Shown here: positions 27,715 to 47,853 of the stretch, one piece after another
How the letters are laid out: each line of letters opens with the position of its first letter
Position numbering within the stretch: the stretch's first letter is position 1
Source: Nitrosopumilus sp.
GTDB taxonomy: Archaea; Thermoproteota; Nitrososphaeria; Nitrososphaerales; Nitrosopumilaceae
Reading direction: 5' to 3'
NCBI GenBank assembly: GCA_963662625.1
Contig: OY759726.1
Coordinates: 96,001-160,000, forward strand
DNA length: 64,000 bases
Made by a program: the position numbers and the translations under genes
Notes under the pieces: generated by a model
Seen by the model: the letters and a program-made list of their open reading frames with translations, nothing else
What the model was told of the DNA's origin: nothing
Databases searched by the model: none

Positions 27715-27867
27715 TCCCCTACCGGAAGTGGGGACACGAGTCCCCCTCTCCCAGTTTCGGCAAGGCCCCTTGGGACCAAGCCAACCCGGCCTAAAGGCCG
27801 AGCCCCAGGAGGATGCCAGGATCCGTGACCGGATCCCGCGGCATCGTCGCCTGGGTCATCAGGGGGA
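27715..27867 (-). ncRNA. hammerhead-like ribozyme with expanded core (GUA site)
   Basis: UCCCC-CUGAUGA-[2 hairpins]-stem II GGC..GCC-GAAAC-stem III-GUA-GGGGA. Confidence 0.6.
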
Positions 27868-27978
27868 TTCCCTGGAATTTGCCCGCATTGGGGCGGTCGG
27901 CGCGTCAGGCGCTCGGTTCGATTCCGTCCGCCGGCGCTGGCCGGGCTGGACAGTGGAGGGACCTTGGGCCCCCGCCAT

Positions 27979-28425
27979 TCAGTTTCCGGAGGGGGACACA
28001 GTCCCTTCCCCGGTCCGGCCGCCGAACAGCCACAGTTCTAGGAGGCTCATGAACTTGCCGTGCCTCATGTTGGCCACCATCGGGCGGTCGAACCTGACGC
28101 CGACGTACTCGACGCCATCCTCGATCCTGTCCCCGATGGCCAGCGTCGGATCCACGACCTTGCCGCCCTCCACGAGGAAGGCGTGCTGGACCCGGATCCC
28201 GAGCGACGGGAGGCGGACGAAGCCCTCGTAATAGGATCGGCCCGCGGAGTGCATGGCGGCGTTACGGTAGCACTCCCTGATCCTGCACCCCCGCGAGGAG
28301 ATGGCGGACGACTTCTCCCTGTCCACGGCCGTGAAGCGCCGGGCATGAGAGGAGAACTTCTCCGCCTCCACGCCTCCGAACGGGATGGAAGTCAGCCCCG
28401 CCGCCCCATTCCCTTCCATTTTCAT
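27979..28425 (-). CDS. hypothetical protein with Cys-His-Asp (papain/transglutaminase-like) signature
   Basis: ECYRNA...QHAFL...VVDPT. Confidence 0.6.
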   Translation of the reverse strand: MKMEGNGAAGLTSIPFGGVEAEKFSSHARRFTAVDREKSSAISSRGCRIRECYRNAAMHSAGRSYYEGFVRLPSLGIRVQHAFLVEGGKVVDPTLAIGDRIEDGVEYVGVRFDRPMVANMRHGKFMSLLELWLFGGRTGEGTVSPSGN

Positions 28426-28535
28426 CCGACCACCTTGTAGTATGACATTTTCCGGCACCTGGGGCACCGGGTGGGCGACGGGCCGTCGCGCTGCCTGCCC
28501 AGGTACTCGCACGAGAGGCACACGTTCCGGTGCAT
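28422..28535 (-). CDS. 37-aa Zn-ribbon peptide
   Basis: Read manually: MHRNVCLSCEY...RCPRCRK; abuts or overlaps both neighbours. Confidence 0.55.
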   Translation of the reverse strand: MHRNVCLSCEYLGRQRDGPSPTRCPRCRKMSYYKVVG

Positions 28536-29018
28536 CTAGTCCTCCGCCTCCAGGTACTGCGTGGAGGGGCCGTAGAAGTCTATGACCGCGTCATCACGCA
28601 GTTCCAGCGCCTCGACATGCCCGCATTTGCAGACCCACGTGTCATGGACCGCGCCGCCGTCGCGGCGGTACAGCTCCGTGGTGGGCTGGTTCGCCCTGCA
28701 CGCGCGGCAGTTCTTGCCCCGCACCAGGGTGATCGTCTCGCTGTCCCTGTCGTCGCTGTCGGCTCGCCCCGGCGCGCCCCCCGCCACCGCGGGGATCCCG
28801 CACACCTGCCCGGACCCGTCCAGGACTATCTCCGCCGTGGCCGGCACCCGCGCCCGAAGGCACGCGGCGTACGACCTGGCGCCGTGCCGCACGATGACGG
28901 CCGCGACGTTGCCGGGCCTGAAGCCCTCCGGGAGGAGGCTCGCCGCCTCCACCGTCTTACCTGCCATGGGGATCTCGCCCCACTCTAGTTCTCCCCTGTA
29001 CTTTGCTACCTGTTCCAA
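28536..29018 (-). CDS. constant-N-terminus family copy 1, Zn-ribbon C-terminus
   Basis: GGAGGTGG SD + TTG; EQVAKYRG...GIPAVAGG, then CRAC...CKCG. Confidence 0.7.
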   Translation of the reverse strand: MEQVAKYRGELEWGEIPMAGKTVEAASLLPEGFRPGNVAAVIVRHGARSYAACLRARVPATAEIVLDGSGQVCGIPAVAGGAPGRADSDDRDSETITLVRGKNCRACRANQPTTELYRRDGGAVHDTWVCKCGHVEALELRDDAVIDFYGPSTQYLEAED

Positions 29019-29158
29019 GGAACCACCTCCAGTGATCCGTTGTCCTGCCGTGACGGCAGTGGCTGCCGCGGTTCCGCGGCGGGGGCCTGGCGGCCCCCGG
29101 TCTCGTCCCCTTCCGGCCGCGCTTGGCGGCCAGTCCCGGCAAGTGCCGGCCGGCGCAT

Positions 29159-29791
29159 CTACGTTTCGGGGCCTTGGCCCCTTCCGGCCGCGGGCCCGCC
29201 AGTGGGCGGGCCGCCCGCAGCCACGCCTGGGGGGCTTTCCCCAGACCTGAGGAACTCGATTAGTTCCAGGTGGTTTTTTCGCATGGAGGACTCGAGCGAG
29301 TTGAGGAGACTGGCAGTCTCCTTCCTCGAAGCCTCGAGCGAGTTGAGGAGACTGGCAGTCTCCTTCCTCGAAGCCTCGAGCGAGTTGAGGAGACTGGCAG
29401 TCTCCTTCCTCGAAGACTCGAGCGAGTTGAGGAGACTGGCAGTCTCCTTCCTCGAAGCCTCGAGCGAGTTGACGATGCGCTCATTAGACTCCTCAATTGA
29501 AGCCCCTAGCGCGTTGATGGCCCGCGTATTCGCCACGGCTTCCGCCATCAACTCCTCGTTCCCCCTGATGACCTTCCCGAAGTTATCATTGATGTCCTTG
29601 GTGATCTGCTTCGTGGTGAACTTCATCACTAGACCTACCACCCCCATCAATATAAAACTCGACGAGACACCGAGCAGCGGCGGGTGGAACGTGTGGAGGC
29701 CCATGATGACACACCCCGCCACGATCATGGGCGTGTGGAACCTGGAGTCCCTGAACACGGCAAGGAAGGAGCTGAGTTCCTTCCTATCCAT
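29159..29791 (-). CDS. membrane-anchored coiled-coil protein with four 14-aa repeats
   Basis: LE(A/S)SRKETASLLNS x4 (42-bp DNA repeat at ~29290-29470). Confidence 0.6.
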   Translation of the reverse strand: MDRKELSSFLAVFRDSRFHTPMIVAGCVIMGLHTFHPPLLGVSSSFILMGVVGLVMKFTTKQITKDINDNFGKVIRGNEELMAEAVANTRAINALGASIEESNERIVNSLEASRKETASLLNSLESSRKETASLLNSLEASRKETASLLNSLEASRKETASLLNSLESSMRKNHLELIEFLRSGESPPGVAAGGPPTGGPAAGRGQGPET

Positions 29792-30164
29792 GCCGGCTCA
29801 CATTCCCACCGCGCATGGCCGACGACACGTACCCGCGCAGCGACGCCGGGCAGCACCTCAGCACCGGCCCGGGAGCCACCCCGCTGGCCAGGAACGCCTC
29901 CCGGAGGAGTTCCGGGTTCCGGCACCTCCCGAGCCCGGCGATCGCCAAGGCGATGGTCCTCTCCCGCACCGCCTGCCTCCCGGCAGGGATGCCAGACGGC
30001 GGGAACCCCCGGATCACCTCCATGGTGCGGTTCGCGACCAGCGAGAGTGCCATCCTGCCGTCGTGCCCGGATTCCCGGAACAGGCGCCTCAGGCACCTGC
30101 CCGTGACACCGTGGCCCACGAGCTCGTCGAACACCCTGGCCAGCAGTTCCGGCGGCAGGGTCAT
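29784..30164 (-). CDS. hypothetical protein
   Basis: ATGA overlap with the stop of the upstream ATPase gene. Confidence 0.5.
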   Translation of the reverse strand: MTLPPELLARVFDELVGHGVTGRCLRRLFRESGHDGRMALSLVANRTMEVIRGFPPSGIPAGRQAVRERTIALAIAGLGRCRNPELLREAFLASGVAPGPVLRCCPASLRGYVSSAMRGGNVSRHG

Positions 30165-32341
30165 CCCCGCCCGTCCCCGAGCTCGCACAGCCGCTTGTCG
30201 AACTCCTCGATAACCCACGGGCTGTAGTCCCGGCCGTTGCCGCTGCCGTCGTGGATCTCCTCGATCACCCTCCTCGCGGTGTCGCTCTTGAGCCCGTGGT
30301 AGAAGGCGTACCTGCCAAGCATCCGGCTGTCGACCATGGGCTCGTCCGTGCCGTCCTCCCCGACGCCGGGGGTCCTGGCGAACTTTGGCAGCATGTCCCC
30401 AAGGTGCAGGTGTGGGGGTTGCCCGGCCCACCCCGCGGCGAACACGAGGGGGAAGGCGTGGATCCCGGCCGCGTAGAGGACCAGCACCCCACTCTTGACC
30501 AGGTGGCCTACCTTCCCCTTCGGGATGTCGCTGTGCCTGACCGTGGGGGCCTTCCCAGGCCTGCCGCCGGCACGCTCGATTATCTGGCCGACCGTCATCA
30601 CCCCCTCGCTGGTCTCATAGACGTAGTTCCCGAGCGACTTGCGCCACTCCGCGAACGGGATCCCCGAATATCCGGAACCCCGGACGGAGTTGGCGCACAC
30701 CATGTCGACCGGGAACGCGCCGCCCCGGCGCATGTGCTTCCCGGTGTCCTGGACCAGCGTTATCTCGTCCATTCTGGCCATGACCATGCCGGGCCGGACG
30801 TCGTCGAGCTGGAATGACCAGTAGCCGTCATCGCCGTACGTCCTGGGGATCCGGTACACCCTGACATTCCTCTTCCCGGAAGTGGAGCTCCTGTCAGACT
30901 TGATCCCGTTGGCGGACATGTACGATTTCACGCTCATTACCCCGTTGGACTCGAAGAGTGGGATCATGTCCGGATCGACCTTGAAGACCTTGATCTTGGG
31001 GTCGCGCCTTAGCACCGGGTCTATCTGCGCCGACCTGCAGGAGTCGGTCACCAGGATGCCGCGGCGTTTTCCGGCCACGAGCCTGAGCCCGATCTCCCAG
31101 GGGGAGCCGTTGGGGCTGTCCGGCTCCCTCGCATCGCACGTCAGCATCCTGTGGTAGTCATCCCACTCCGAGATCCCGTCCAGGTCGTCCTGGACTGGCC
31201 CATGGATGAGCCCGTCGATCAACCGGCATTCCGGGGACATCACGTACTCCTCGAACGACCCCTTCTCGATCGAGGATACGAACCCGGTGATCATGGAGTC
31301 TATCTCCCGGTCGACCCTCTCGCGGGCCTCGTCGCTGAGCCTCTCCCTGTCAGGCGTGGGCTTGTACTTGCGCTCGTCCCTGACGTTGACAGACAGCAGC
31401 CCGATGTGTCCGCGGTACTTGCCAACGTAGTCGTACTGGATTGGTATGCCGCACAGGTATGCCACCGTCACATCGCCCCCTACCGCTCCGGTCCCGCTGT
31501 AGGTTATGCACACGTCGATGTCGTCACCATCGATCGTGCTGGCATGCAGCCTCCTCAACACCCCGCAGTCAGGGCTGCCGAAGAGCCGCCTGTCGTAGGA
31601 TTTGAGGCTCTCCAGCGCCAGCGTCTCCAGGTCCCCGGCCGGCACCATCCCGGAAAGTTCCCGGCCCCACTCGGTGGTGGCGGCGCTGCCGGTGATCTCG
31701 ATCTCCGTGGGGACTCCGCTGAGCCTGGCGCAGTCATGCACCATCCTGACGATCTCCCCCAGGTCGACGTCCTCCCTGGCCGTCAGGGAGACCCTGGTCC
31801 CAAAGTCGCCCTTATCGGGCGTGGGGAGCCCCGTCTGGAACCCCTCCCCGGCCTTGCCCATCACGGCGTACCTTTCGCCGGTCTCGCGGCAGTGCGTCTC
31901 CAGGATCATGATGTCGGAGATGCACATGTACGCCGCGCGCCCGAAGCCGAACTGGCCGGACTCCCGCCCGTCGAAGTTGGTGCTGCGCCCGAGGACGCAG
32001 AAGACGTTGGCGAACGTGTCCCAGCTCATCCCGGAGGAGCCGAAGCCCTCCAGCACGATCTTGCGCGAGTGCGAGTCGACCTTCAGGCTGATCCTCGCCC
32101 CGTGCCCGCCACCGATCGCGGTCCTACAGGCGCGCGCCTCGTTGGCGTAGAGCTCCCTGATCCCAGACGACGGATTCGCGTAGAGGTCCTTGCTGATCCT
32201 CTGCCTGACGACGTCCTTCTCCAGGTCGGTCGAAATGAACCCGCCCGCGCTTCCGTCCGGCATGTCGCCGGCCCATCCTGTCTGCTGGAGCTTCAGCGGC
32301 TCCTCTTTCCTTATCTCTGGCTTGTAGTACTTCTCACCCAT
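30161..32341 (-). CDS. GHKL (Hsp90/rIIA-like) ATPase, paralog 1
   Basis: LYANPSSGIRELYANE, GMS, GQFGFGRAA, FGT and PTPDRERL motifs. Confidence 0.8.
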   Translation of the reverse strand: MGEKYYKPEIRKEEPLKLQQTGWAGDMPDGSAGGFISTDLEKDVVRQRISKDLYANPSSGIRELYANEARACRTAIGGGHGARISLKVDSHSRKIVLEGFGSSGMSWDTFANVFCVLGRSTNFDGRESGQFGFGRAAYMCISDIMILETHCRETGERYAVMGKAGEGFQTGLPTPDKGDFGTRVSLTAREDVDLGEIVRMVHDCARLSGVPTEIEITGSAATTEWGRELSGMVPAGDLETLALESLKSYDRRLFGSPDCGVLRRLHASTIDGDDIDVCITYSGTGAVGGDVTVAYLCGIPIQYDYVGKYRGHIGLLSVNVRDERKYKPTPDRERLSDEARERVDREIDSMITGFVSSIEKGSFEEYVMSPECRLIDGLIHGPVQDDLDGISEWDDYHRMLTCDAREPDSPNGSPWEIGLRLVAGKRRGILVTDSCRSAQIDPVLRRDPKIKVFKVDPDMIPLFESNGVMSVKSYMSANGIKSDRSSTSGKRNVRVYRIPRTYGDDGYWSFQLDDVRPGMVMARMDEITLVQDTGKHMRRGGAFPVDMVCANSVRGSGYSGIPFAEWRKSLGNYVYETSEGVMTVGQIIERAGGRPGKAPTVRHSDIPKGKVGHLVKSGVLVLYAAGIHAFPLVFAAGWAGQPPHLHLGDMLPKFARTPGVGEDGTDEPMVDSRMLGRYAFYHGLKSDTARRVIEEIHDGSGNGRDYSPWVIEEFDKRLCELGDGRG

Positions 32342-32456
32342 GTGATCTACCCCCTTTGGTTCGTTGTCGCGGGCCTTCCACCCGCCAGCCGGCGCCGCCA
32401 CGGCGCGGTCCCCACAGCGCGTCCCGGTGGCCTGGGGGCGGGCTCCCGCCCGCCGT

Positions 32457-34661
32457 CTACTCATTCCGGACCCCGCCGCGGCGGCCGCCCTGGCTCCGGC
32501 CTTGGTCGCTGGCCAGGCGAGCGTCTATCTCCCCGATCAGGCGCATGTAGGCATCCGACCAGTGGGGGTTCCCGCCCCTCATGAACTCGGTGAACACCTC
32601 CCTGATCATGGGCTCCCGGATCCCGACGTAAAACTCGTAGAACCGCATCACGTCGGCGTCGACGTCCCTCCAGGACTGGTACACCAGCCCGGCCACCCCG
32701 GAGAACTCGGAGGACATGTCTTCCATCCTGAGGCACTTCTGCATTCCCCTTCGCATGGCCTTGCCGTACCTGTCTGGCTTCCCGTCAACCCCATGGTACA
32801 GGAGGATCGGGAGAAGTGACTGCTTGCTGACGTCGACTGCCAGCAGGCCGCCCTGGCTCATCTTCCCGGCGGCCTTTCCGGCCGGGAACTTCACCATCCT
32901 CAGGTCCCACTTGGGGTCGCATATGTCCCTCACCGTCATCACCCCCTCGCTGGTGGAGTAAATCCTCCCCCCGAGGGACTCGCGGAAGTCGGGCCACGCC
33001 ACCCCTTCAAAGTCCGGGCCGACGGAACCGGCCTTGGCGTACCTGAACCCGAACTCGTCGCTCTGGTAGTTCCAGGCGATGGCCGTGAGCCCGTTCTGCA
33101 CGGATTCGAACTCCTCCCCTACCAGCACCAGGTTTTCCGGCAGGTCATCGGAGGCCATGGACGTCGCCTTTTTGTGGCCCCAGGAGGTGTACACCCTGGT
33201 TTTCCTGGGGACCTTCGCCGATTTTTTCACCTTGATGCCGTTCTCCTTCATGTACCGCCTGACGGGGGTGAGGCCTTCGGCCTCCAGCATGTCATACGCC
33301 GCGGCGTCGGGGATCCTGACCACCTTAATTTCTCGGTCGTGCTCCTCGATCGCCTCGAGGATTGCCGAGCTGAACGCCCTGGTTATGAGGACCTTCGGCC
33401 CGCTGATGATACTCCCGAGCGGCCAGCATCCCCCGCCTATGCACCCGCTTGCCTCCACCGCCATGGCGCTCCTGTAGCCGGCGTACATGGCGCGGTGCCT
33501 GAACGGCACCAGCCCCTCGTACACCCCGCGCCCGACGTGGTTCGTCAGGCAGTCAAGCAGCCTGCATGATGGATCGGACAGGTAGCCTGTCAGCGTCCTC
33601 TTCCCATGGGACATTACCCTGGCCTCGATCAGGGCGTCGACCCTCTCGCTGACCCTGCCGGCGGCCTCGTCGCTGAGCCTCTCCCTGTCAGGCGTGGGCT
33701 TGTACTTGCGCTCGTCCCTGACGTTGACCGACACCAGTCCGATGTGTCCGCGGTACTTGCCAACGTAGTCGTACTGGATTGGTATGCCGCACAGGTATGC
33801 CACCGTCCTGCCGCCGCCCACTCCGGGCGAGGCCATCACGACCACCTCGATCTCGTCGTCACCCACGTCTTGGACGGTGGGCTTCCTGAGGATCGCCTCG
33901 GCGTAATCGCCATCAACGCGGAACCGCCCGGCGGATATCTCCCCAAGCGTCTTCCGCGTGACGGCGCCCTCGTACTCCGAAACCCCGTTGTCCGGGTTAC
34001 GCCCCCTGCCGTCGAGGACGATCTCAGTGGGGACCCCGCTCATCTCGGCGCAGGCGTGCACCATCCTGACGATCTCCCCCAGGTCGACGTCCTCCCTGGC
34101 CGTCAGGGAGACCCTGGTCCCAAAGTCGCCCTTATCGGGCGTGGGGAGCCCCGTCTGGAACCCCTCCCCGGCCTTGCCCATCACGGCGTACCTTTCGCCG
34201 GTCTCGCGGCAGTGCGTCTCCAGGATCATGATGTCGGAGATGCACATGTACGCCGCGCGCCCGAAGCCGAACTGGCCGGACTCCCGCCCGTCGAAGTTGG
34301 TGCTGCGCCCGAGGACGCAGAAGACGTTGGCGAACGTGTCCCAGCTCATCCCGGAGGAGCCGAAGCCCTCCAGCACGATCTTGCGCGACCCGTACTCCAC
34401 CGTGAGACGGATGCTCGCCCCGTGCCCGCCACCGATCGCGGTCCTGCAGGCGCGCGCCTCGTTGGCGTAGAGCTCCCTGATCCCAGACGACGGATTCGCG
34501 TAGAGGTCCTTGCTGATCCTCTGCCTGACGACGTCCTTCTCCAGGTCGGTCGAAATGAACCCGCCCGCGCTTCCGTCCGGCATGTCGCCGGCCCATCCTG
34601 TCTGCTGGAGCTTCAGCGGCTCCTCTTTCCTTATCTCTGGCTTGTAGTACTTCTCACCCAT
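32457..34661 (-). CDS. GHKL (Hsp90/rIIA-like) ATPase, paralog 2
   Basis: N-terminal ~200 aa nearly identical to paralog 1; divergent C-terminus. Confidence 0.8.
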   Translation of the reverse strand: MGEKYYKPEIRKEEPLKLQQTGWAGDMPDGSAGGFISTDLEKDVVRQRISKDLYANPSSGIRELYANEARACRTAIGGGHGASIRLTVEYGSRKIVLEGFGSSGMSWDTFANVFCVLGRSTNFDGRESGQFGFGRAAYMCISDIMILETHCRETGERYAVMGKAGEGFQTGLPTPDKGDFGTRVSLTAREDVDLGEIVRMVHACAEMSGVPTEIVLDGRGRNPDNGVSEYEGAVTRKTLGEISAGRFRVDGDYAEAILRKPTVQDVGDDEIEVVVMASPGVGGGRTVAYLCGIPIQYDYVGKYRGHIGLVSVNVRDERKYKPTPDRERLSDEAAGRVSERVDALIEARVMSHGKRTLTGYLSDPSCRLLDCLTNHVGRGVYEGLVPFRHRAMYAGYRSAMAVEASGCIGGGCWPLGSIISGPKVLITRAFSSAILEAIEEHDREIKVVRIPDAAAYDMLEAEGLTPVRRYMKENGIKVKKSAKVPRKTRVYTSWGHKKATSMASDDLPENLVLVGEEFESVQNGLTAIAWNYQSDEFGFRYAKAGSVGPDFEGVAWPDFRESLGGRIYSTSEGVMTVRDICDPKWDLRMVKFPAGKAAGKMSQGGLLAVDVSKQSLLPILLYHGVDGKPDRYGKAMRRGMQKCLRMEDMSSEFSGVAGLVYQSWRDVDADVMRFYEFYVGIREPMIREVFTEFMRGGNPHWSDAYMRLIGEIDARLASDQGRSQGGRRGGVRNE

Positions 34662-36134: not shown

Positions 36135-36817
36135 GCCGCGGCCTCGCGCTCGCAGTTGGGGCACTCGACGTGCTCGTACGCGGCGTCATGGACCTCGCGC
36201 GCCTTCCAGTCGCACTCGCGGCACGCCAGGACGTGGAGCGAGCGCGCGTTGTAGGGCTCATGCCAGGAGATGACCAGGCCGGAGCAGTCGGGGCAGGGGA
36301 AATGCTTCACCGTGGTGTAGCCCGTCTTGTCCCCGAGCCATCTCCCGTCGCTGCCGTCGTCCCTCCCCTTGTCGTTGATGGCTTTGTCATGGGCGGCCTC
36401 GCGCTCGCAGTTGGGGCACTCGACGTGCTCGTACGCGGCGTCATGGACCTCGCGCGCCTCCCAGTCGCACTCGCAGCACGCCAGGACGTGGAGCGAGCCA
36501 GCGTCGTGGTGCTCATACCAGGAGTTGACCTGGCCGTTACAGTCCGGGCAGGGGACATCCGTTACCGTGGTGTCACCCCCCGCCACCGCGGGGATCCCGC
36601 ACACCTGCCCGGACCCGTCCCGGACTATCTCCGCCGTGGCCGGCACCCTGGCATTCAGGGTCACCGCGTACGACCTGGCGCCGTGCCGCACGATGACGGC
36701 CGCGACGTTGCCGGGCCTGAAGCCCTCCGGGAGGAGGCTCGCCGCCTCCACCGTCTTACCTGCCATGGGGATCTCGCCCCACTCTAGTTCTCCCCTGTAC
36801 TTTGCTACCTGTTCCAA
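36131..36817 (-). CDS. constant-N-terminus family copy 2, duplicated multi-Cys domain
   Basis: Constant module, then CPDC...ACxEC...CPNC twice. Confidence 0.7.
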   Translation of the reverse strand: MEQVAKYRGELEWGEIPMAGKTVEAASLLPEGFRPGNVAAVIVRHGARSYAVTLNARVPATAEIVRDGSGQVCGIPAVAGGDTTVTDVPCPDCNGQVNSWYEHHDAGSLHVLACCECDWEAREVHDAAYEHVECPNCEREAAHDKAINDKGRDDGSDGRWLGDKTGYTTVKHFPCPDCSGLVISWHEPYNARSLHVLACRECDWKAREVHDAAYEHVECPNCEREAAA

Positions 36818-36939
36818 GGAACCACCTCCAGTGATCCGTTGTCCTGCCGTGATGGCAGTGGCTGCCGCGGTTCCGCGGCGGGGGCCTGGCGGCCCCCAGT
36901 CTCGTCCCCTTCCGGCCGCGCCGGCCGCGCCGCCGCGCC

Positions 36940-37408: not shown

Positions 37409-39228
37409 TCGTCCTCCCAGTCCCTGTCCCGGATGCGCTCCAGGATCCTCCCGTACTTCTCCTCCGCCTCTTCGACGTCCACCCGGAGGTAGTCATCGTT
37501 GACGCAGATGGAGTAGAACTCGCACTTGGTCAGGATCCGGACGCCGCCTTCCGGGGAGCCCATGATCTCCCTGATCGTCCCCAGTTCGGCATGGGTGGGG
37601 GAACGCCCGGCGTCCTCGTCATCCAGGACCACCGCGTACATTTCCACCCCGCCCTTCCCGGGGAACGTCTCCCATTCGAGGCCGCACTCGAACGACCAGT
37701 CGTCCCCGTCGCAGGAGTAGATCGTTTCCAACCCGCCGGTCCAGGAGGAGGACGATGGAAAGAAGGACGGCTCGCCTATCTCCCCGGTCTCCGGGTCCAC
37801 CTCCACGGCGGCCGAACCCCCGCCGAGACACCCGATCTCGTGGGCCTTCGCGACGTGCCCCGCGATCTTGTCGGATTCGTCCACCATTCCGGCGATCGCC
37901 CGCATCCGGTGGAGGAACCTCCGGTATGTCTCCACGGCCCCATCGGCGGCCTCGATGACCGTCTCTGGAGAGTACAGGCAGCCGGCCACCTCCGCATCGG
38001 TGAGCTTTCGCACGTCCTGGCGTTCGTCGAGACCGGATTCGCGGATCTCGGCAAGGGTGGCCTCGCGCCCCACCTTGTCGAGACCAAACAGTGAATTCCG
38101 GGCCTCCACCAGGCGCCCCTCGAATCCGGCGATGGACGCGTTCTCTACGCAACGCTCGTCAAGCTCCTCCCCAAGGTACACCGAGTCGAGGGAGTAAAGG
38201 CTGACCCAACCCGGGGTGCAGGAGCGGCCGTCTGGACTGGTGGCCACGGCGACGGCGCCGGTCTTCTCGCTTGCCTCAAGGGACTGGTGTGCCTCCCCGG
38301 GGTGGAGCGCGCAGTATACGTGCATCCCCCTCACCAGGGCCTCGATCTCGTCGGAATGGTCGGCTATCCCTTCCGCCGTCCCCCCGGCCAGCCTTTGGCA
38401 GGACTCGGTCAGCAGGCGCATTCCCCGGGCCACGTTGTCCACCATCGTGACGTCGGCCAGCAGCCCAGCGTACGCCTCTTGGGCCTTCAGGATCTCGTCC
38501 CCATAGTACTCCTCGAGGTCGAGGGCGTCGTAAAGCTCCTCGTCGGAGAAGACGCGCACCGGCCTCGACAGGTCTAGCGTGGCCCCCTCCTCGCGGAGCG
38601 TGGCCAGCTCCCCAGCGCTGGCCTCGCGGCCGGCATCGGCCAGGCACGTCCCGGCCCCGGGGTTGAGCGCGTAATGGGTGGCGAACTGGTTTCGCCGGCA
38701 CTCCGGCTCGATCTCGACTGCCCCCAGTTCCGGGTGGTCGTCCAGCCAGAAACCGTACGGCGACATCTCGGCGATGATCCCGTGCCCGTCCTTGGGGGGG
38801 TCACCATCGTCCAGCCCCTCCTCCGGCGTCTGCGTCCTGACGGAGCCTATGCTGCCGGTGGAGTAATTCGCCTCGATCCTCGCGACCATGTTTCCGATGG
38901 CGGCCTCCCTCATCATCGCCATCACGTAGCCCTTGATGTTTTCGGACTCGTCGACGATTTCGGGAATCCCGCGGGCAGCGCATGAGCCCCCCGCCACCGC
39001 GGGGATCCCGCACACCTGCCCGGACCCGTCCCGGACTATCTCCGCCGTGGCCGGCACCCGCGCCCGAAGGCACGCGGCGTACGACCTGGCGCCGTGCCGC
39101 ACGATGACGGCCGCGACGTTGCCGGGCCTGAAGCCCTCCGGGAGGAGGCTCGCCGCCTCCACCGTCTTACCTGCCATGGGGATCTCGCCCCACTCTAGTT
39201 CTCCCCTGTACTTTGCTACCTGTTCCAA
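37405..39228 (-). CDS. constant-N-terminus family copy 3, large acidic C-terminus with 3 internal repeats
   Basis: GREASAGELATLRE..VRVFSDEE / GREATLAEIRE..VRKLTDAE / GRSPTHAELGTIRE..VRILTKCE. Confidence 0.75.
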   Translation of the reverse strand: MEQVAKYRGELEWGEIPMAGKTVEAASLLPEGFRPGNVAAVIVRHGARSYAACLRARVPATAEIVRDGSGQVCGIPAVAGGSCAARGIPEIVDESENIKGYVMAMMREAAIGNMVARIEANYSTGSIGSVRTQTPEEGLDDGDPPKDGHGIIAEMSPYGFWLDDHPELGAVEIEPECRRNQFATHYALNPGAGTCLADAGREASAGELATLREEGATLDLSRPVRVFSDEELYDALDLEEYYGDEILKAQEAYAGLLADVTMVDNVARGMRLLTESCQRLAGGTAEGIADHSDEIEALVRGMHVYCALHPGEAHQSLEASEKTGAVAVATSPDGRSCTPGWVSLYSLDSVYLGEELDERCVENASIAGFEGRLVEARNSLFGLDKVGREATLAEIRESGLDERQDVRKLTDAEVAGCLYSPETVIEAADGAVETYRRFLHRMRAIAGMVDESDKIAGHVAKAHEIGCLGGGSAAVEVDPETGEIGEPSFFPSSSSWTGGLETIYSCDGDDWSFECGLEWETFPGKGGVEMYAVVLDDEDAGRSPTHAELGTIREIMGSPEGGVRILTKCEFYSICVNDDYLRVDVEEAEEKYGRILERIRDRDWEDE

Positions 39229-39586
39229 GGAACCACCTCCAGTGATCCGTTGTCCTGCCGTGACGGCAGTGGCTGCCGCGGTTCCGCGGCGGGGGCCGGG
39301 CGGCCCCCGGTCTCGTCCCCTTCCGGCCGCGCCTGGCGGCCAGTCCCGGCAAGTGCCGGCCGGCGCATCTACGTTTCGGGGCCTTGGCCCCTTCCGGCCG
39401 CGGGCCCGCCAGTGGGCGGGCCGCCCGCAGCCACGCCTGGGGGGTCACCCCCAAGGCCTGGTGACGCTGCTTGTCCAACGACGGCGCGGGCCACGCCCGG
39501 GTTGGATCCGTGGTGGCATCGGGTGGTCGCGGCCGTCATGCCAACACCTGCCTCACGGGAGGATATAAGCCAACCCGTGGCGGCGG

Positions 39587-40622: not shown

Positions 40623-40987
40623 GCCGTCCGTACCCCGCTGGACTTAAAAGGCCCGAAGCAAAGTCCGCGCAGCGACGCCGCCGCCGCGGCAATCCTGCCC
40701 CCTCTATCCGGCCTGGCCTGGGCCCTCCCGGCCTCGGCCGCGGCCAGCGCCAGCAGCGACCGCCGCATCCCGTCGCCGCAGCCCGGCACCCCGACGCCGT
40801 CGACGCACTGGACCCCCACCAGGGCGACGCCCCCGTCTGGCGCGACAGTAGACTTTGACCTCCGCGGGTAGTGGGCCAGCCTGACCCTGTCCCCGTGCAG
40901 TTCCACCTGCAGGGTGCCGTCGAAGTGCCTAGACACTTCCAGCATCGCCAGCACCTTGCCCTTGACGCTCTCCTGGAGCCGGCTCAT
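40619..40987 (-). CDS. hypothetical protein
   Basis: ATGA-coupled ORF starting MSRLQESVK. Confidence 0.5.
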   Translation of the reverse strand: MSRLQESVKGKVLAMLEVSRHFDGTLQVELHGDRVRLAHYPRRSKSTVAPDGGVALVGVQCVDGVGVPGCGDGMRRSLLALAAAEAGRAQARPDRGGRIAAAAASLRGLCFGPFKSSGVRTA

Positions 40988-41373: not shown

Positions 41374-41389
41374 TTCAACACCTCCTGTG

Positions 41390-42265
41390 TCAGTTGTACG
41401 GGCACATCGTGCCCGTCCAGTATTCCCCGAACTCGCATTCGAGGCTCATGCCGCCCGGCATCTGTCCTGCGGCGTCGTCCCACCTGCTGGACACAACCCT
41501 GCCGAGCACGTCTTTCAGTCCCCCACCACACGCCGTCTCGAACTTGCCGAGGTCGACGGTGCAGAGGAGCAGCAGCAGCCTTGCGCCGCCGTCCGAGGAG
41601 TCCCAGATGTCACGGATCTCCCCAAGCGTCCTGTTCCTCAGGAAGGCGCGTATCCCGGATACTGTCTCCAAGATATCCGCGCCACCCGTCCCGGCGGCGC
41701 CCGTCACGGCCCCGAGGCTTCCGCCCTGGCTGCGCACGCGGGGGCGCAGCGCGAGCAGAGGAGGAACGTCTCCCCAGTCTCCTCGCCATCCCGGCCGATG
41801 GCCGCGATCACGGCCCAGAACTTGCCCATGCCACCGCCGCAGTTGCGGCACGACTGCCCCTCCACCTAGGATCCGCCCCCGTTTTGCGGGATGCAGAACC
41901 GGTGGCCGGGCACGTCGCCCTCCTCCAGGTAAACCTGGCAGTGGCGGCAGTAGAACACTACAGAGTCGTTGCCTAGGTCTATCGCCGGGACCAGGTGGTG
42001 CAGGAGGAGGAAGGACGACCCGCGGTCACCCATGCCTTCCACCACCCGCGGAGAACTCCAGCGGCAGCGGCACCCTAAGCAGCCGGCCGCCGGCCGCCGC
42101 GAGCACCATGGCGCGCTGGCCGCACCTCCGGCATTTCTGCCTGTACTGCGGGCCGCGCGCGTGCGCCCTCTCGTAGGTCCCGTCGACCGTCACCCAGTCG
42201 CAGCGCCCGTCCAGGCCGTCGCCGCAGTCCGGGACGGAGTGGTGGTCTGCAGTCCCCGGCATCAT
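41390..42265 (-). CDS. cluster of four short coupled ORFs: three Cys-rich, one related to the copy-5 repeat domain
   Basis: RTLGEIRDIWDSS resembles KTLAEIREAWNSS of 44970-45953; CRNC..CSRC, CRHC..HRFC and CRRC motifs read manually. Confidence 0.45.
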
Positions 42266-42948
42266 TCCCCGCCCTCCTGGGAGTTGAGCGATCTCTCCTT
42301 GCCCTCGACCGACTTCACGTGCCCCTGGATCTCCTTCGTGAGCTGCTGGAAGAAGACGTGGTCGGAGCTCTTCGGGTGGAGGAGGAAGAAGATCTTGGCT
42401 ATGATCACCATGGTCTGCGACGACACCTTGACGTCGCCGTGCACCGGTATGTTGATCACGGAGTTCATGCTCCCGCTGGAGACGATGCACACGAACTTCC
42501 ACTCGTTGTCGACACGGTAGTGCGCGGCCCCGTGCGAGTCCACCATGAACACCCCGTCCACGACGTAGTTGCCAGGTTCCGCCTCCATGTCGACCCTGTG
42601 CGGGTAGGCGCTGAAGACCGACTTTATCAGGTCCTCGTGAACCCTGATGGAGTACCACTCTCGGAATATCTCGGTGAACGCCTCGACGTCCTCGCCGAGT
42701 ATCGCCTTGCATATCCCCTCCGCGTCAGAGATCTGCATCGTCTTCCCGTCGTGGAAGGCGTTGAAGATCCCGTCGTCGTACGTCTCCCCGACGTGGGTCC
42801 CGTCGGCGAAGGTGTGGAATATCCGCTCCCCCTGGAGGCGAAGGTATTTCATCTCGTGGTACGGCGTCTTCGGCATCGTTGACACCCCCATCTCGGTCTG
42901 TATTATGTACAGGTCCTTCCTGTCCTCCAGTACCTTCACGGGTGGCAT
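42262..42948 (-). CDS. hypothetical protein
   Basis: 228-aa ORF with globular-protein composition. Confidence 0.65.
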   Translation of the reverse strand: MPPVKVLEDRKDLYIIQTEMGVSTMPKTPYHEMKYLRLQGERIFHTFADGTHVGETYDDGIFNAFHDGKTMQISDAEGICKAILGEDVEAFTEIFREWYSIRVHEDLIKSVFSAYPHRVDMEAEPGNYVVDGVFMVDSHGAAHYRVDNEWKFVCIVSSGSMNSVINIPVHGDVKVSSQTMVIIAKIFFLLHPKSSDHVFFQQLTKEIQGHVKSVEGKERSLNSQEGGE

Positions 42949-42950
42949 GC

Positions 42951-43433
42951 CTATGCAGACCCCCCGACGTTCCCGGATAGAAATGCTTCCACGGCAATGG
43001 CGTGGGAGCAGTGCTTCCTGAACCGGAAGCCGAGGCAGTCACACCTGCCGCTGCAGACGACGTGGACCCTTTCGGTGATCACCGCGTACGCGCCGTTGCC
43101 TATCTCCCTGACGGCGCCAGAGGCGAACAGGGCCTCCCCCTTCCGCCTGCACCTGGCGCTGGGTTCCACGGCCCGGGCCTCCTGCACGGATCCCCCCGCC
43201 ACCGCGGGGATCCCGCACACCTGCCCGGACCCGTCCAGGACTATCTCCGCCGTGGCCGGCACCCTGGCATTCAGGGTCACCGCGTACGACCTGGCGCCGT
43301 GCCGCACGATGACGGCCGCGACGTTGCCGGGCCTGAAGCCCTCCGGGAGGAGGCTCGCCGCCTCCACCGTCTTACCTGCCATGGGGATCTCGCCCCACTC
43401 TAGTTCTCCCCTGTACTTTGCTACCTGTTCCAA
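42951..43433 (-). CDS. constant-N-terminus family copy 4, SWIM Zn finger
   Basis: CDCLGFRFRKHCSH (CxC-xn-CxH). Confidence 0.75.
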   Translation of the reverse strand: MEQVAKYRGELEWGEIPMAGKTVEAASLLPEGFRPGNVAAVIVRHGARSYAVTLNARVPATAEIVLDGSGQVCGIPAVAGGSVQEARAVEPSARCRRKGEALFASGAVREIGNGAYAVITERVHVVCSGRCDCLGFRFRKHCSHAIAVEAFLSGNVGGSA

Positions 43434-43549
43434 GGAACCACCTCCAGTGATCCGTTGTCCTGCCGTGATGGCAGTGGCTGCCGCGGTTCCGCGGCGGGGG
43501 CCTGGCGGCCCCCGGTCTCGTCCCCTTCCGGCCGCGCTTGGCGGCGCGA

Positions 43550-44131
43550 TCATCTGGATTTGGGGGCGGAGATTGACACCTCCACCTCCCTGATCCCCGA
43601 GTCAAGGACGAACGCCCTGACGTCCTTGTCCAGCCCGGAATATATCGCCCAGACCTGCCCTGCCGGGTTGCTGCCCATGTATCCGACGTCCGTCTCCGAC
43701 GGGTACGCCACCCCGCTAGGGTGGGAGTGGAATATCCCGACCACCTCGACCCCTAGGCCAGCCGCCCTGGCGTGCGCCCCGACCAGCTCCCCGTCCGGGA
43801 TGCTGAATGTGACCGGAGACCTCGCCGCGTTTCCGGTGATCACGACCTCCGTGACCTCCACGGCGCTCCCTGGCCTGCCTAGCAGGACGGCGCATGACTC
43901 GTCAGGCATGCACGCCTCGGCGTGCCTCATGATCTTGCGAAGCCCCTCCCCGCTGAGGGTTATCCTGGACGGCCAGGAACGCGACTCCTCCGAGTCGCAC
44001 CTGCCGCAGTCGCACCCCATGCATTTGGCATGGTCGCCCCCGCTGCAGTTGGTGCAGTGAAATCGCGGGCCGTCCCACTCCCCGGCGCCGGAGCGCCGGA
44101 AGGGGGGGACCCTGCCCTGGTAGGCGCTCAT
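43550..44131 (-). CDS. JAB/MPN+ (M67) metallo-isopeptidase with N-terminal Cys-rich domain
   Basis: PDESCAVLLG...FHSHPSGVAYPSETD. Confidence 0.85.
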   Translation of the reverse strand: MSAYQGRVPPFRRSGAGEWDGPRFHCTNCSGGDHAKCMGCDCGRCDSEESRSWPSRITLSGEGLRKIMRHAEACMPDESCAVLLGRPGSAVEVTEVVITGNAARSPVTFSIPDGELVGAHARAAGLGVEVVGIFHSHPSGVAYPSETDVGYMGSNPAGQVWAIYSGLDKDVRAFVLDSGIREVEVSISAPKSR

Positions 44132-44967
44132 GCCGCCGGCGTGGGGGCCACCAGGCGGCCGTCGCCAGTCCCAGCTCCCGGCTTGCCGGCGCCGGCCGAG
44201 AGTATCATGTCGAGCACCTTCTCGACCTTGCTCATCACCCTGACGCAGGACCGGCCGACCTCCTCCGGGGTCGCCTCCTTGGAGTAGTGGGCGATGTAAT
44301 TGTAGGAGTTGGCGTCCGCCGCGTGGCCGTACATCCTGGCAAGCACCGCAGCCGCGAGTTCGGCCACGGTCTCCTGCTCCGGATCCTGCCCGGGCTTCAG
44401 GTCCTCGATCCTCGAGTGCGCCAGGTGCGCCAGCTCGTGGAAGAAGACCTTCGGGTCGGAGGTGCACAGGCGTATGAGGCCACGCCCCTTCGAGAAGCTT
44501 CCCTCTTCCCCCCTGACCGTCTCGTCGTACTTGACGTCGGCGCCCCACTTTCTGGCCACCTCGAGGAGGGGCGGGGGCTCGACGTTCGAGTCTGCAATTT
44601 CAAGGTCGTCTCCCTCCGTGTCCTCGAAACGGAACACGGGGACGCAGCGGAATCCGGTGACGAACTCCCTATCCTCCTCCCCGTCCGGGCCTTGGATCGT
44701 GCGCTTCGCCACGCAGGGGGCCAGTATGTACGCGGCCTTGCTGCCCTTCCTGACCTGCCTGCCGACCTTCTGCCACTGCCTGTAGCCCCTGGCGTCGCCG
44801 GTGCCGGCGATGAACATGAAGAGCCTGTTGCTCATGCTCCAGGAGTCGGACGGCCTCCCGACCTTGAGCTTCAGGTACGTGGCCTTGACCATGTCCGGAA
44901 ACTCCTCGGAGGAGAACGCGTCGACTATCTTCTGGAGCTGCTCTATGGCCTTCTGGGTGCTGGGCAT
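44128..44967 (-). CDS. ArdC-like ssDNA-binding/antirestriction protein with HExxH domain
   Basis: WSMSN...GYRQWQKVGRQVRKGSKA.YILAP; FHELAH; E.VAEL. Confidence 0.8.
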   Translation of the reverse strand: MPSTQKAIEQLQKIVDAFSSEEFPDMVKATYLKLKVGRPSDSWSMSNRLFMFIAGTGDARGYRQWQKVGRQVRKGSKAAYILAPCVAKRTIQGPDGEEDREFVTGFRCVPVFRFEDTEGDDLEIADSNVEPPPLLEVARKWGADVKYDETVRGEEGSFSKGRGLIRLCTSDPKVFFHELAHLAHSRIEDLKPGQDPEQETVAELAAAVLARMYGHAADANSYNYIAHYSKEATPEEVGRSCVRVMSKVEKVLDMILSAGAGKPGAGTGDGRLVAPTPAA

Positions 44968-44969
44968 GC

Positions 44970-45953
44970 CTATTTCCCCCTGCAGTACGGGGCGAAGACG
45001 TCGCTGGTCTTGACGTGCTCGTACTGGTCCCAGTCAGAGTCCAGGAGGTCCCTCTCCATCTCGTCCTGGGTGTACCCCCCTTCCGCCGAAAAGTCATGGT
45101 CCTCCAGTTCGTCCCTCAGGCTGTTGCAGAACTCGACCATGTTTGTCCTGTCGTGCGCCGTGGAGGAGTTCCACGCCTCCCTGATCTCGGCCAGGGTCTT
45201 CCCTGAGTACTGGAGCCTCGCCGCCCTGTCGTTCAGCTCAATCCTCCTGGCTTTCAGGTCATGCAGCGCGGAGCCGATCTCCCTGATTTCACTGACCAGT
45301 TTCTCGACGGTCTTCCCAGACCCGTCTCTCACCGGCCCGCCCCTGCAGTACGGGGCGAAGACGTCGCTGGTCTTGACGTGCTCGTACTGGTCCCACTTTG
45401 AATTCAGGAACTGGTGAAGCATTTCTGGCTGGCTCCAGCCCCCCTCCATGGAATAGTCGTTGTCCTGCAGTTCGTCCTCGAGGCTGCCGCAGAATTCAGT
45501 CATGGCGTACCTTTCGCCATCGTCGCCGGCGTCCCACATCTCCCGGATCTCTTCCAGGGAGTGGACGGAGTACTTTATGGCCGCGGCCTGGTCGTTCAGC
45601 GCCCTCCTCCTGGTCCTGAGTCCCAAGATCTCGATGTCGACGTCCTCGCGCCTGCCTGCGATCTTCTCGACTTCTGGCGAGTTGGCAATCAAGCCCCCAG
45701 CCCCCGGCGCGCCCCCCGCCACCGCGGGGATCCCGCACACCTGCCCGGACCCGTCCAGGACTATCTCCGCCGTGGCCGGCACCCGCGCCCGAAGGCACAC
45801 GGCGTACGACCTGGCGCCGTGCCGCACGATGACGGCCGCGACGTTGCCGGGCCTGAAGCCCTCCGGGAGGAGGCTCGCCGCCTCCACCGTCTTACCTGCC
45901 ATGGGGATCTCCCCCCACTCTAGTTCTCCCCTGTACTTTGCTACCTGTTCCAA
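44970..45953 (-). CDS. constant-N-terminus family copy 5, duplicated helical domain
   Basis: Two repeats ending WDQYEHVKTSDVFAPYCRG. Confidence 0.75.
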   Translation of the reverse strand: MEQVAKYRGELEWGEIPMAGKTVEAASLLPEGFRPGNVAAVIVRHGARSYAVCLRARVPATAEIVLDGSGQVCGIPAVAGGAPGAGGLIANSPEVEKIAGRREDVDIEILGLRTRRRALNDQAAAIKYSVHSLEEIREMWDAGDDGERYAMTEFCGSLEDELQDNDYSMEGGWSQPEMLHQFLNSKWDQYEHVKTSDVFAPYCRGGPVRDGSGKTVEKLVSEIREIGSALHDLKARRIELNDRAARLQYSGKTLAEIREAWNSSTAHDRTNMVEFCNSLRDELEDHDFSAEGGYTQDEMERDLLDSDWDQYEHVKTSDVFAPYCRGK

Positions 45954-46344
45954 GATACCACCTCCGTGATATGTCGTGCCGCTCTCGCGGTCGGCGGGGG
46001 CCATGCCCCCGCGGGGCGGGCATCGTCTTCCCGGTGCCTCGGTAGTCGTTCATCCCGATCGGGATGGGTTGTCGTATTCCCCGACCCGCGCCCGGCACAC
46101 GCCGGGTTCGGGTTTCGGCGAGGCCCGCGCGGGACCAAGCCAACCCGGCCAGTGAGGCCGAGCATCCGGCGGCTGTCTGTTCCGCCAGCCGGAATCCTCA
46201 GGGGGTTTGCCCGCATCCAAGGCGGGTCACGGCTCTGAGAGTGGCCGTGATTCGCCCCGCCGCGCCGCAGGCGCCCGGGACACGTCATTTCCGGGCAGTT
46301 CCCCGGAAGTGGCGCTGGGCGCCGGCGGCGCCGGCCTGGGTTCC
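45715..46344. repeat. ~630-bp repeat (structured leader + constant module), also at ~47363-47992
   Basis: Offset 1648; near-identical. Confidence 0.92.
46079..46205 (-). ncRNA. hammerhead-like ribozyme with expanded core (GUC site)
   Basis: CCCC-CUGAGGA-[2 hairpins]-GGC..GCC-GAA-ACCCG...CGGGU-C-GGGG. Confidence 0.6.
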
Positions 46345-46497
46345 CACAGCCCCCGCCGGACGGCAGGCACCTGGCGTGGGAGGGGTGATCAGGCCCGGCG
46401 GGCCCCGGGGTTCCCCCCGGCCAGTCCCTGGCCAGTCCGTAGTCCCCTAGGGAGATCGTGCCGCCGGGTGGGGGGGGCGTCTACCCTCCCGCCGCCG

Positions 46498-46665
46498 TCA
46501 CCCTCCCCCCTCGGAGGCGTCCACGCCCAACTTCTCGGCCATCTTGGCCTTGAAGGCGGAGGCGAACTTGTCCTTGGATTCATGGTCGGGGAACCCGCCG
46601 ACAACGGACACGCTGACGCGGTCGCTGATCCTGATCTCGCCCGAACCATTCCCGTCGGAGGGCAT
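46498..46665 (-). CDS. small hypothetical protein
   Basis: MPSDGNGSGEIRIS..., 55 aa, starts 2 nt after the upstream stop. Confidence 0.45.
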   Translation of the reverse strand: MPSDGNGSGEIRISDRVSVSVVGGFPDHESKDKFASAFKAKMAEKLGVDASEGGG

Positions 46666-46667
46666 GG

Positions 46668-47258
46668 CTAGTCCCCCCTGAACAGGGTAAAGTCGGAGCC
46701 GTACCCCAGGAAGTGGTCGCACAGCCACATGCCGTCCTTCCAGTCCTTGGCCTCGCCGTCGCTGCTCACCAGCATCCCGTCCCCGAGGTGGTGCTTGGCC
46801 ACGATCAGGCACGCGTTGACAGCCAGGTCGTACGGCTTGTACGCGGTCTTGCAGCAGTTAAAGTGGAACTGCCTGCCGTCCCTTTCGGTAACGTGCCCGG
46901 AGCTCTTCCTCTGGAGGAGGAATGTCTCGTGCGAGCAGTCGCCGTCGCACATCCTGGTGTCTATCTCGTCCCCGGCGAACCACTGGCTCGACGGCCCGTC
47001 GCCGCCGACCATGACGCCCGACGCGTTCTCGGACGGCCAGGTCAGCCTGAGGGACTGCTCCTTGTGCCCGCACGCCGCCGGGCCGTTGAAGCGGATCTCG
47101 TTGGCGGTGAACTGCGGGAATTTCCCCCCGACGCCGTTTGCCAGCTTGACCCCCAGGTGTTCCAGCGGCTTGACCAGCCGCTTGAAGTCGGAGGCCACCT
47201 TCCTGAACTCTGCGGGCGGGAAGGATGGCTCGGTGTACCAGTAGTGGCTGTAGCCCAT
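46668..47258 (-). CDS. conserved phage/plasmid-type hypothetical protein
   Basis: MGYSHYW...IRFNG...HETF...CKTAYKPYDLAV...VSSDG. Confidence 0.7.
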   Translation of the reverse strand: MGYSHYWYTEPSFPPAEFRKVASDFKRLVKPLEHLGVKLANGVGGKFPQFTANEIRFNGPAACGHKEQSLRLTWPSENASGVMVGGDGPSSQWFAGDEIDTRMCDGDCSHETFLLQRKSSGHVTERDGRQFHFNCCKTAYKPYDLAVNACLIVAKHHLGDGMLVSSDGEAKDWKDGMWLCDHFLGYGSDFTLFRGD

Positions 47259-47259
47259 C

Positions 47260-47601
47260 CTAGTACGCCCCCTTGAGCGCGCGCACTCCCCCGTACGTGG
47301 GGGAGGGGGTCCCGCCGGAACCCCCTTCGGCCGCGGGAATCCCGCGGGCAGCGCATGAGCCCCCCGCCACCGCGGGGATCCCGCACACCTGCCCGGACCC
47401 GTCCAGGACTATCTCCGCCGTGGCCGGCACCCTGGCATTCAGGGTCACCGCGTACGACCTGGCGCCGTGCCGCACGATGACGGCCGCGACGTTGCCGGGC
47501 CTGAAGCCCTCCGGGAGGAGGCTCGCCGCCTCCACCGTCTTACCTGCCATGGGGATCTCCCCCCACTCTAGTTCTCCCCTGTACTTTGCTACCTGTTCCA
47601 A
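47260..47601 (-). CDS. constant-N-terminus family copy 6, short tail
   Basis: Constant module, SCAARGIP, then 24 aa. Confidence 0.6.
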   Translation of the reverse strand: MEQVAKYRGELEWGEIPMAGKTVEAASLLPEGFRPGNVAAVIVRHGARSYAVTLNARVPATAEIVLDGSGQVCGIPAVAGGSCAARGIPAAEGGSGGTPSPTYGGVRALKGAY

Positions 47602-47726
47602 GATACCACCTCCGTGATATGTCGTGCCGCTCTCGCGGTCGGCGGGGGCCATGCCCCCGCGGGGCGGGCATCGTCTTCCCGGTGCCTCGGTAGTCGTTCA
47701 TCCCGATCGGGATGGGTTGTCGTATT

Positions 47727-47853
47727 CCCCGACCCGCGCCCGGCACACGCCGGGTTCGGGTTTCGGCGAGGCCCGCGCGGGACCAAGCCAACCCGGCCAG
47801 TGAGGCCGAGCATCCGGCGGCTGTCTGTTCCGCCAGCCGGAATCCTCAGGGGG
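47727..47853 (-). ncRNA. hammerhead-like ribozyme with expanded core (duplicate of 46079-46205)
   Basis: Identical sequence at offset 1648. Confidence 0.6.

Follow-up and report, generated by a model that had tools for sequence, protein, structure and literature searches.

Among small ribozymes the hammerhead has been studied best, and its core is regarded as strictly a three-way junction. Here we describe an RNA element from a 64,000-nucleotide (nt) stretch of a Nitrosopumilus sp. genome (contig OY759726.1 of assembly GCA_963662625.1, positions 96,001 to 160,000; hereafter the window), which carries three minus-strand copies in which the bases of the hammerhead core surround two additional hairpins. 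A hammerhead with helices inserted in its core appears to be a previously undescribed structural variant, and these elements probably represent a five-way-junction form of the type-I hammerhead that is predicted to be actively self-cleaving.

In the closest described systems, additional material between A9 and G10.1 of the core amounts to a single base. The plus-strand hammerhead of chrysanthemum chlorotic mottle viroid (CChMVd) tolerates one extra base (A10) at this step (PMC3705267), which agrees with what an earlier note on this DNA, made from the sequence alone, had stated for some viroid hammerheads, and in Penelope-element hammerheads one extra base at the same step is conserved (PMC4209133). 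Both carry their addition at the same place as the element reported here, but as one bulged base instead of two complete helices. The core is also active under unexpected connectivity in the non-circularly permuted SGC, CSG and GCS hammerheads, which first came to notice as a conserved CUGAnGA at odds with the forms published until then (Eckert et al. 2023, PMC10085705); these types reorder the three blocks and create pseudoknots, whereas here the classic type-I order is retained and helices are added in the junction. Extra junction helices are described as organising a small nucleolytic core in the four-way hairpin ribozyme and four-way twister-sister, as is proposed here, but these are different catalytic folds and the analogy with the expanded hammerhead is conceptual only. 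The accessible text of a 2011 hammerhead survey, which counts “at least three” hammerheads in archaea, contains no mention of added stems, an extra nucleotide or large insertions (Perreault et al. 2011, PMC3088659), and our literature search, whose coverage stopped short of supplementary alignments and subscription journals, found no description of helices between A9 and G10.1.

Like the type-I hammerhead (RF00163, Hammerhead_1), the element has the order stem I, CUGANGA, stem II, GAAA, stem III, then U and H, with an open stem I, and it possesses all core bases, the G10.1–C11.1 and A15.1–U16.1 pairs and a non-G H17. It differs in a two-hairpin domain of 38–94 nt at A9/G10.1 that creates a five-way junction, in a stem I of 3–5 bp, and in additional conserved parts, namely the base of hairpin Pb (GCUC/GGGU), a linker U and A-rich flanks. 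A three-way junction with A9 joined to G10.1 directly or via one base is found in no member, and no curated covariance model reaches its gathering score at the three sites. Specifically, a gathering-score scan of the window with Rfam 15 returned tRNA only, without a hammerhead at these sites, and a scan of two motif regions at E values up to 10 returned weak, irrelevant matches and no hammerhead family, bearing out the expectation in the earlier note that standard models would miss the element.

The order of parts along the RNA is P1, CUGANGA, Pa, Pb, U, Pc, GAAA, Pd (stem III), U and H, and the second strand of P1 (Table 1). In the window versions P1 has 4–5 bp; Pa differs between the two versions; Pb reads GCUCGGCC..GGCCGGGU and Pc reads GGC UU GGUCCC..GGGCC UY GCC; Pd opens with an A–U pair, and one unpaired base (A or C) precedes the 3′ strand of P1. 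The minimum free energy (MFE) structure of both versions is the same five-way junction. The sequence reads as the earlier note described, with three minus-strand copies in two sequence versions and an insert between A9 and stem II that measures 53 nt in version 2 and 73 nt in version 1, against the ~55–75 nt it had given. The copies at 46 and 47 kb are 100% identical across 171 nt and lie in a duplicated block of ~640 bp (roughly 45705-46345 = 47353-47993), which also takes in ~140 nt of upstream sequence, a leader of 75 nt and the start (~300 nt) of an open reading frame (ORF). These two copies therefore reflect a duplication, and the window contains two independent versions rather than three.

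Sequence comparison indicates that the three elements belong to a real, conserved RNA family. Entry to this family was through protein: relatives of a ~100-amino-acid (aa) constant module, which begins the ORFs downstream of the version 2 copies, occur in 5 of 201 genomes of the same taxonomic family including its own, and upstream of the module genes of the other four lies the same RNA architecture with quite different helix sequences and lower G+C. The earlier note had proposed a covariance model from homologs as a check, and one such model (R1), built from only the two copies in a genome of another genus (G103), gives full-length matches to the window copies at 35.6 and 33.4 bits (E values of 1.7e-7 and 6.3e-7 in 105,940 bases searched). 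Because R1 was built without the window copies and yet finds them, this constitutes an independent detection. A second model (R2), built from seven sequences, was applied to samples of 150 genomes per taxonomic rank and matches 5/151 genomes at the family rank (own genome included), 6/151 at order and 9/151 at class; at phylum rank it matches 2/151, both from the home family, with no match among the 131 phylum-sample genomes from other families. With filters off over 22000-54000 of the window, the three copies score 76.7–95.4 bits versus 12.2 bits for the next-best match. Two weak order-level matches were left out, one judged degenerate (G260) and the other a 32-nt fragment (G310), and three sequences (G322, 22 bits; G353; G375) were read by eye as complete members with large Pc or Pd insertions. 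In total, the family comprises 18 distinct sequences from 12 archaeal genomes, occurring in mobile-looking islands of one class and spanning at least four GTDB families.

Several other searches gave candidates that were set aside. A BLAST comparison of the motif with 60 relatives produced a single 25-nt match, in G029, judged to be chance. The exact junction pattern GGGTTGGCTTGG..GCCGAAAC occurs in 26 stretches of genome contigs and 40 stretches of metagenome contigs, which were likewise attributed to chance, with no Pb sequence, gap hairpin or upstream CUGANGA; the same pattern, too strict for this purpose, has 0 stretches in viral contigs. A looser three-block pattern gave 35 stretches in viral contigs, only one of which R2 scored (13.5 bits, E value 0.24), and none is credible. 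In phage records, the motif has no blastn match and the constant module no tblastn match.

The conservation of the core was read from a model-based alignment of 17 distinct rows, with an eighteenth sequence (L112) parsed by hand; MAFFT misaligned the variable hairpins, and model-based alignments were used in its place. C3, U4, G5, A6, G8, A9, G12, A13, A14 and A15.1 are each present in 17/17 rows, and L112 agrees, with CUGAUGA and GAA present. N7 is U in 14 rows, A in two and G in one, and H17 across the 18 distinct sequences is C in ten, A in four and U in four, never G. The A15.1–U16.1 pair is seen in 16/17 rows as aligned; the exception (L151) has its 3′ end misaligned by cmsearch, and the alignment-free descriptor introduced below gives A–U, while L152, whose 3′ end is misaligned in the same way, yet shows A–U in this column. 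The core positions that vary, N7 and a non-G H17, are exactly the free positions of the hammerhead, and this pattern is the one that catalysis, beyond structure alone, requires. As for the place of the insert, the closing pair is G–C in 17/17 rows for Pc and in only 4/17 for Pa. Since Pc, beside GAAA, closes with an invariant G–C like G10.1–C11.1, Pc corresponds to stem II and the insert lies at A9/G10.1, in agreement with the position given in the earlier note; Pa was rejected as stem II because it lacks a conserved closing pair. CUGAUGA was also considered as part of a kink-turn or C/D box, a reading rejected because the corresponding strand of version 2 is CUGAGGA and no single helix is flanked by the GA strands.

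Outside the classic core, conservation is confined to four basal pairs of Pb (G–U, C–G, U–G and C–G), the linker U and the A-rich flanks. In all members P1 is directly preceded by GGGAAA(A)U and directly followed by an A-rich run (AAAA), for example at 27872-27868 and 27714-27708. Pa, by comparison, varies freely in sequence and length, which leaves ligand control of the insert unsupported, and nothing seen favours the suggestion in the earlier note that the insert is possibly regulated. That the element is some other RNA with a five-way junction, for instance a riboswitch or a regulatory element bound by a protein, and resembles the hammerhead core by chance is a quite improbable explanation. 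In its favour, copies are found in the leaders of genes, Rfam has no matching family, and any RNA with several helices tends to conserve its junction bases; against this, the core bases fall where the hammerhead topology puts them (one strand separates P1 from the helix that follows, another separates Pc from Pd, and one non-G base separates Pd from P1), the closing G–C and A–U pairs are invariant, and canonical hammerheads lie on the same strand 5–6 kb upstream. Moreover, the homologs, which were outside the data of the earlier note, keep exactly these bases: that note had named as refuting evidence homologs that lose CUGANGA/GAAA while keeping the hairpins, and the 11 other genomes retain both, together with A15.1–U16.1 and a non-G H17.

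Covariation in the 17 rows extends over the whole structure. In particular, 93.0% of 657 cells are paired, versus 33–50% when the partner is slid by 1–3 columns, and both-sided changes are present in 32/41 pairs, so distributed that all five helices covary, including P1 (3/5 pairs), Pc (8/10) and Pd (5/7). None of 500 shuffles matches any of the observed covariation measures. An earlier alignment of 10 distinct rows gave 95.6% paired with 28/41 pairs changed on both sides, and RNAalifold on its own returns the same five helices. In the base of Pb, the G–U pair is present in 17/17 rows and the U–G pair in 15/17; as these would be C–A mismatches on the opposite strand, they fix the RNA strand. 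We give almost no credence to the idea that the copies are not RNA but repeated DNA of a mobile element, such as one of its ends, an origin or a site of recombination, or that the pattern arose by chance within a recent duplication: two of the three window copies do belong to a recent 640-bp duplication and tandem DNA repeats lie nearby, but the compensatory changes in five helices across 12 genomes and the strand-specific G–U pairs are at odds with it, as are detection by a model from another genus and the lack of matches in reversed controls.

Because model-based alignments favour the model, a descriptor that needs no alignment was written, requiring CUGANGA, two hairpins, a G..C hairpin, GAAA, an A..U hairpin, a non-G base and a P1 of at least 3 bp. 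It finds all three window copies, with H17 at 27720, 46083 and 47731, the same positions as those implied by the cuts predicted in the earlier note, which are consistent with the hammerhead rule (Table 1). In addition, it gives 15 matches in 13 of 15 other loci, none of them in L111 or L113, and 0 matches in the reversed genome and the reversed loci. Two extra matches in the own genome (707119-707479, plus strand; 50322-50691, minus strand) were rejected as chance: their P1 is 3 bp long, their loops are very long and R2 does not match them.

The island also contains canonical hammerheads. Two minimal type-I hammerheads lie on the same strand as the expanded copies, 5–6 kb upstream (Table 1), and their stem II resembles the base of Pc in homologs of the expanded form. 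A strict descriptor finds four type-I hammerheads in the genome and 0 in the reversed genome, the other two lying at ~1.81 Mb (G000:C1:1808620-1808659 and 1810198-1810237). In five genomes, RF00163 gives sub-threshold matches only, among them the one through which the canonical hammerhead at 53.6 kb was recognised, and RF02276 gives no match. The AUG of ORF 53050-53646 begins 2 nt past the predicted cut of hammerhead 1, and that of ORF 52776-52964 begins 1 nt past the predicted cut of hammerhead 2. In both, the AUG of the next ORF lies inside the 3′ strand of stem I, and predicted cleavage would leave essentially leaderless mRNAs. The hammerhead of the haloarchaeal viruses HF1 and HF2, which in a polycistronic transcript precedes the start codon of a helicase by 13 nt (Perreault et al. 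2011, PMC3088659), is comparable to these two in its position just before a start codon in an archaeal mobile genome; it is a canonical three-way hammerhead from another host lineage, and the predicted cut of the expanded form lies 79 nt before the ATG. The presence of canonical hammerheads in the island suggests that RNA processing in this element relies on hammerheads and would thereby raise the odds that the expanded form is a working relative.

Two further observations concern the sequence around hammerhead 1. A C/D-box small-RNA-like element, with C, D′, C′ and D boxes in order, lies at 53752-53820 (minus strand), ~55 nt upstream of the hammerhead at 53.69 kb, and is weakly matched by the archaeal families sR1, sR39 and sR3 (19.9 bits, E value 0.005, below the cut-off). 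A TATA-like AT-rich stretch, TTTAATTTTT, lies at 53711-53724 (minus strand), ~25–30 nt upstream of the first base of the hammerhead (53695), a spacing that suggests that a transcript may start at or just before this base.

On the basis of these sequences we infer how the expanded form would stack and cleave and what it might do. The three-way core would be kept, with P1 as stem I, Pc as stem II and Pd as stem III, and Pa followed by Pb would form a two-hairpin domain inserted between A9 and G10.1, giving a five-way junction with almost no linker bases. Since only 0–1 linker bases surround Pa, Pb and Pc, the tandem G–A pairs would become one arm of a compact four-way junction: the sheared G8–A13 and A9–G12 pairs would join Pa, Pb and Pc, and either stacking arrangement would leave one helix on them. 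The hammerhead active site could then form as usual, and the minus-strand transcript would be cut 3′ of H17, yielding an upstream product with a 2′,3′-cyclic phosphate and a downstream RNA with a 5′-OH that starts with GGGGAA. Such cleavage would separate the downstream cistron, for two copies a gene with the shared N-terminal module, from the upstream RNA of a long same-strand gene array, while the canonical hammerheads would trim their own mRNAs to 1–2 nt before the AUG. Our guess is that the basal pairs of Pb, the linker U and the A-rich flanks may replace the tertiary stabilisation between stem I and loop II.

Several points weigh against an active expanded hammerhead. We know of no hammerhead with helices inserted in its core; A9 normally stacks straight on G10.1, so that an insert here may distort the site. 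Across the family, P1 is open-ended and no longer than 3–5 bp, and the MFE folds of two homologs (L082 and L084) do not contain it. The GGGAAA flank resembles the 3′ strand of P1 and, in most members, could compete with P1 by pairing with its 5′ strand in a hairpin of 3 bp. Additionally, the linker U could pair with G12, as drawn by both RNAfold and RNAalifold, with U–G in 17/18 rows; this pair would compete with the A9–G12 pair, and because it never varies, covariation neither supports nor refutes it. No loop–loop or pseudoknot contact between stem I and stem II was identified, the A-rich flanks and the base of Pb being candidates only. On the side of the data, the covariation counts come from alignments fitted to the model, and the members are kin, so that 18 sequences amount to fewer than 18 independent events.

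Some of these points would equally suit a hammerhead-derived RNA that no longer cleaves and has been taken over as a structured 5′-leader or intergenic element, for example as a protein-binding platform or as a stability or translation element, its core bases being conserved for structure. The insert does sit at a catalytically sensitive step, P1 is very short, the linker U could engage G12, and the conserved A-rich flanks and Pb base suggest constraints unrelated to the known hammerhead. We nevertheless consider loss of cleavage unlikely, as the observed variation fits catalysis, with N7 free, no G among 18 H17 bases and C3, G5, A6, G8, G12, A13 and A14 invariant, and active-looking canonical hammerheads share the island.

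A more elaborate proposal, to which we attach little likelihood, is that the insert acts as a gate, making the element a natural allosteric hammerhead, and that its tandem copies give rise to circular RNAs from a DNA mobile element. The wobble-rich base of Pb and the linker U would then be placed at the A9/G10.1 metal site and the GGGAAA flank would sequester the 5′ strand of P1, so that cleavage would require a factor or an ion, or would depend on its timing during transcription. In G103, two tandem expanded hammerheads (locus L109, G103:C2, 1442-1636 and 1733-1910, minus strand) have predicted cuts ~290 nt apart, and the RNA excised between them, barely over one ribozyme unit, would recall small hammerhead-bearing circular RNAs. 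Tandem copies such as these, or those 1648 nt apart in the window, would release RNA with 5′-OH and 2′,3′-cyclic-phosphate ends, which would be a ready substrate for an archaeal RNA ligase and could yield circular RNAs.

Table 1. Coordinates of the putative expanded and canonical hammerheads and of the module-bearing ORFs downstream of version 2 (positions in the window; cuts are predictions)
Feature	Position	Strand	P1 or stem I and core	Inserted hairpins and stem II	GAA and stem III	H17 and predicted cut	Evidence or remark
Expanded hammerhead, version 1	27715..27867	(-)	P1 27867-27863 / 27719-27715; core CUGAUGA 27862-27856	Pa 27855-27804; Pb 27803-27784; linker U 27783; Pc (stem II) 27782-27759	GAA 27758-27756; stem III (Pd) 27755-27721	A27720; cut 27720/27719	MFE five-way-junction fold; R2 76.7 bits; descriptor
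Expanded hammerhead, version 2, copy a	46079..46205	(-)	P1 46205-46202 / 46082-46079; C3–A9 core CUGAGGA 46201-46195	Pa 46193-46165; Pb 46163-46143; linker U 46142; Pc 46141-46117	GAA 46116-46114; stem III 46113-46084	C46083; cut 46083/46082	R2 95.4 bits; descriptor; fold
Expanded hammerhead, version 2, copy b	47727..47853	(-)				C47731; cut 47731/47730	Offset +1648 from copy a; R2 95.4 bits
Canonical minimal type-I hammerhead 1	53642..53695	(-)	Stem I 53695-53690/53648-53642, one bulged U; CUGAUGA 53689-53683	Stem II GACC..GGUC	GAA 53669-53667; stem III 53666-53650	C53649; cut 53649/53648	RF00163 19.9 bits, below the 34-bit cut-off; strict descriptor
Canonical minimal type-I hammerhead 2	52960..53010	(-)	Stem I 53010-53005/52965-52960; CUGACGA 53004-52998	Stem II GGCC..GGCC	Stem III 52981-52967	C52966; cut 52966/52965	Strict descriptor
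ORF, 344 aa	44970..46004	(-)					Constant module forms the first ~100 aa; not matched in Pfam or PHROG
ORF, 130 aa	47260..47652	(-)					Begins with the constant module

The genome is a single 1.86-Mb contig of 63% G+C with archaeal 16S and 23S ribosomal RNA, and the genes of the window include a CofH-like radical-SAM gene (F420 biosynthesis). The motifs sit in a stretch of ~24-53 kb that is read almost wholly on the minus strand and whose ORFs nearly all have no Pfam or PHROG match, the exceptions being an ArdC-N-like anti-restriction protein (44128-44967), a JAB domain, an SNase-like domain and, further on, a DNA methylase. The constant module is the ~100-aa N-terminus common to six ORFs, only two of which (starting at 46004 and 47652) have the motif upstream. 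For these two, the earlier note's distance of ~130 nt upstream of constant-module genes holds for the middle of the motif, whereas the ATG lies 75 nt past the motif's 3′ end and 79 nt past the predicted cut. At the DNA level, the module is a ~300-nt segment present in six copies that are 85–100% identical (28776-29075, 36575-36874, 38986-39285, 43191-43490, 45711-46010 and 47359-47658) and encodes the N-terminus of otherwise different ORFs, a cassette-like gene family without a Pfam match. Two other module genes have in common a different GC-rich upstream element (29076-29200 and 39286-39410, minus strand; …GGGGCCAAGGCCCC-GAAAC…), which has no CUGANGA and no R2 match.

Downstream of version 1 lie a tandem repeat with a 55-nt unit and a small ORF. 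Perfect tandem repeats occur at 27124-27474 (55 nt, 6.4 copies, just downstream of version 1), at 26274-26402 (39 nt, 3.3 copies) and at 29291-29472 (42 nt, 4.3 copies), the 42-nt unit recurring near G000:C1:1.778 Mb (locus L099); these repeats could be iterons or repeat RNA. Elsewhere in the window, an ORF pair encoding a 222-aa protein and a 152-aa nucleoside 2-deoxyribosyltransferase is duplicated 20 kb apart (4177-5435 and 24453-25711, plus strand) and flanks a gene for a 2579-aa FG-GAP/DUF285 surface protein (13524-21263).

If the expanded form is active, the hammerhead core would tolerate a four- or five-way junction at the very step that holds its catalytic metal site. This would explain why covariance models miss such variants, more of which may hide in genomes, and would provide a natural insertion point for sensor domains in engineering. 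Very few hammerheads are known in methanogen-like archaea. Together with the canonical hammerheads placed 1–2 nt before start codons, the expanded form would point to ribozyme-based mRNA processing in mobile elements of this group, which would include the production of leaderless mRNAs.

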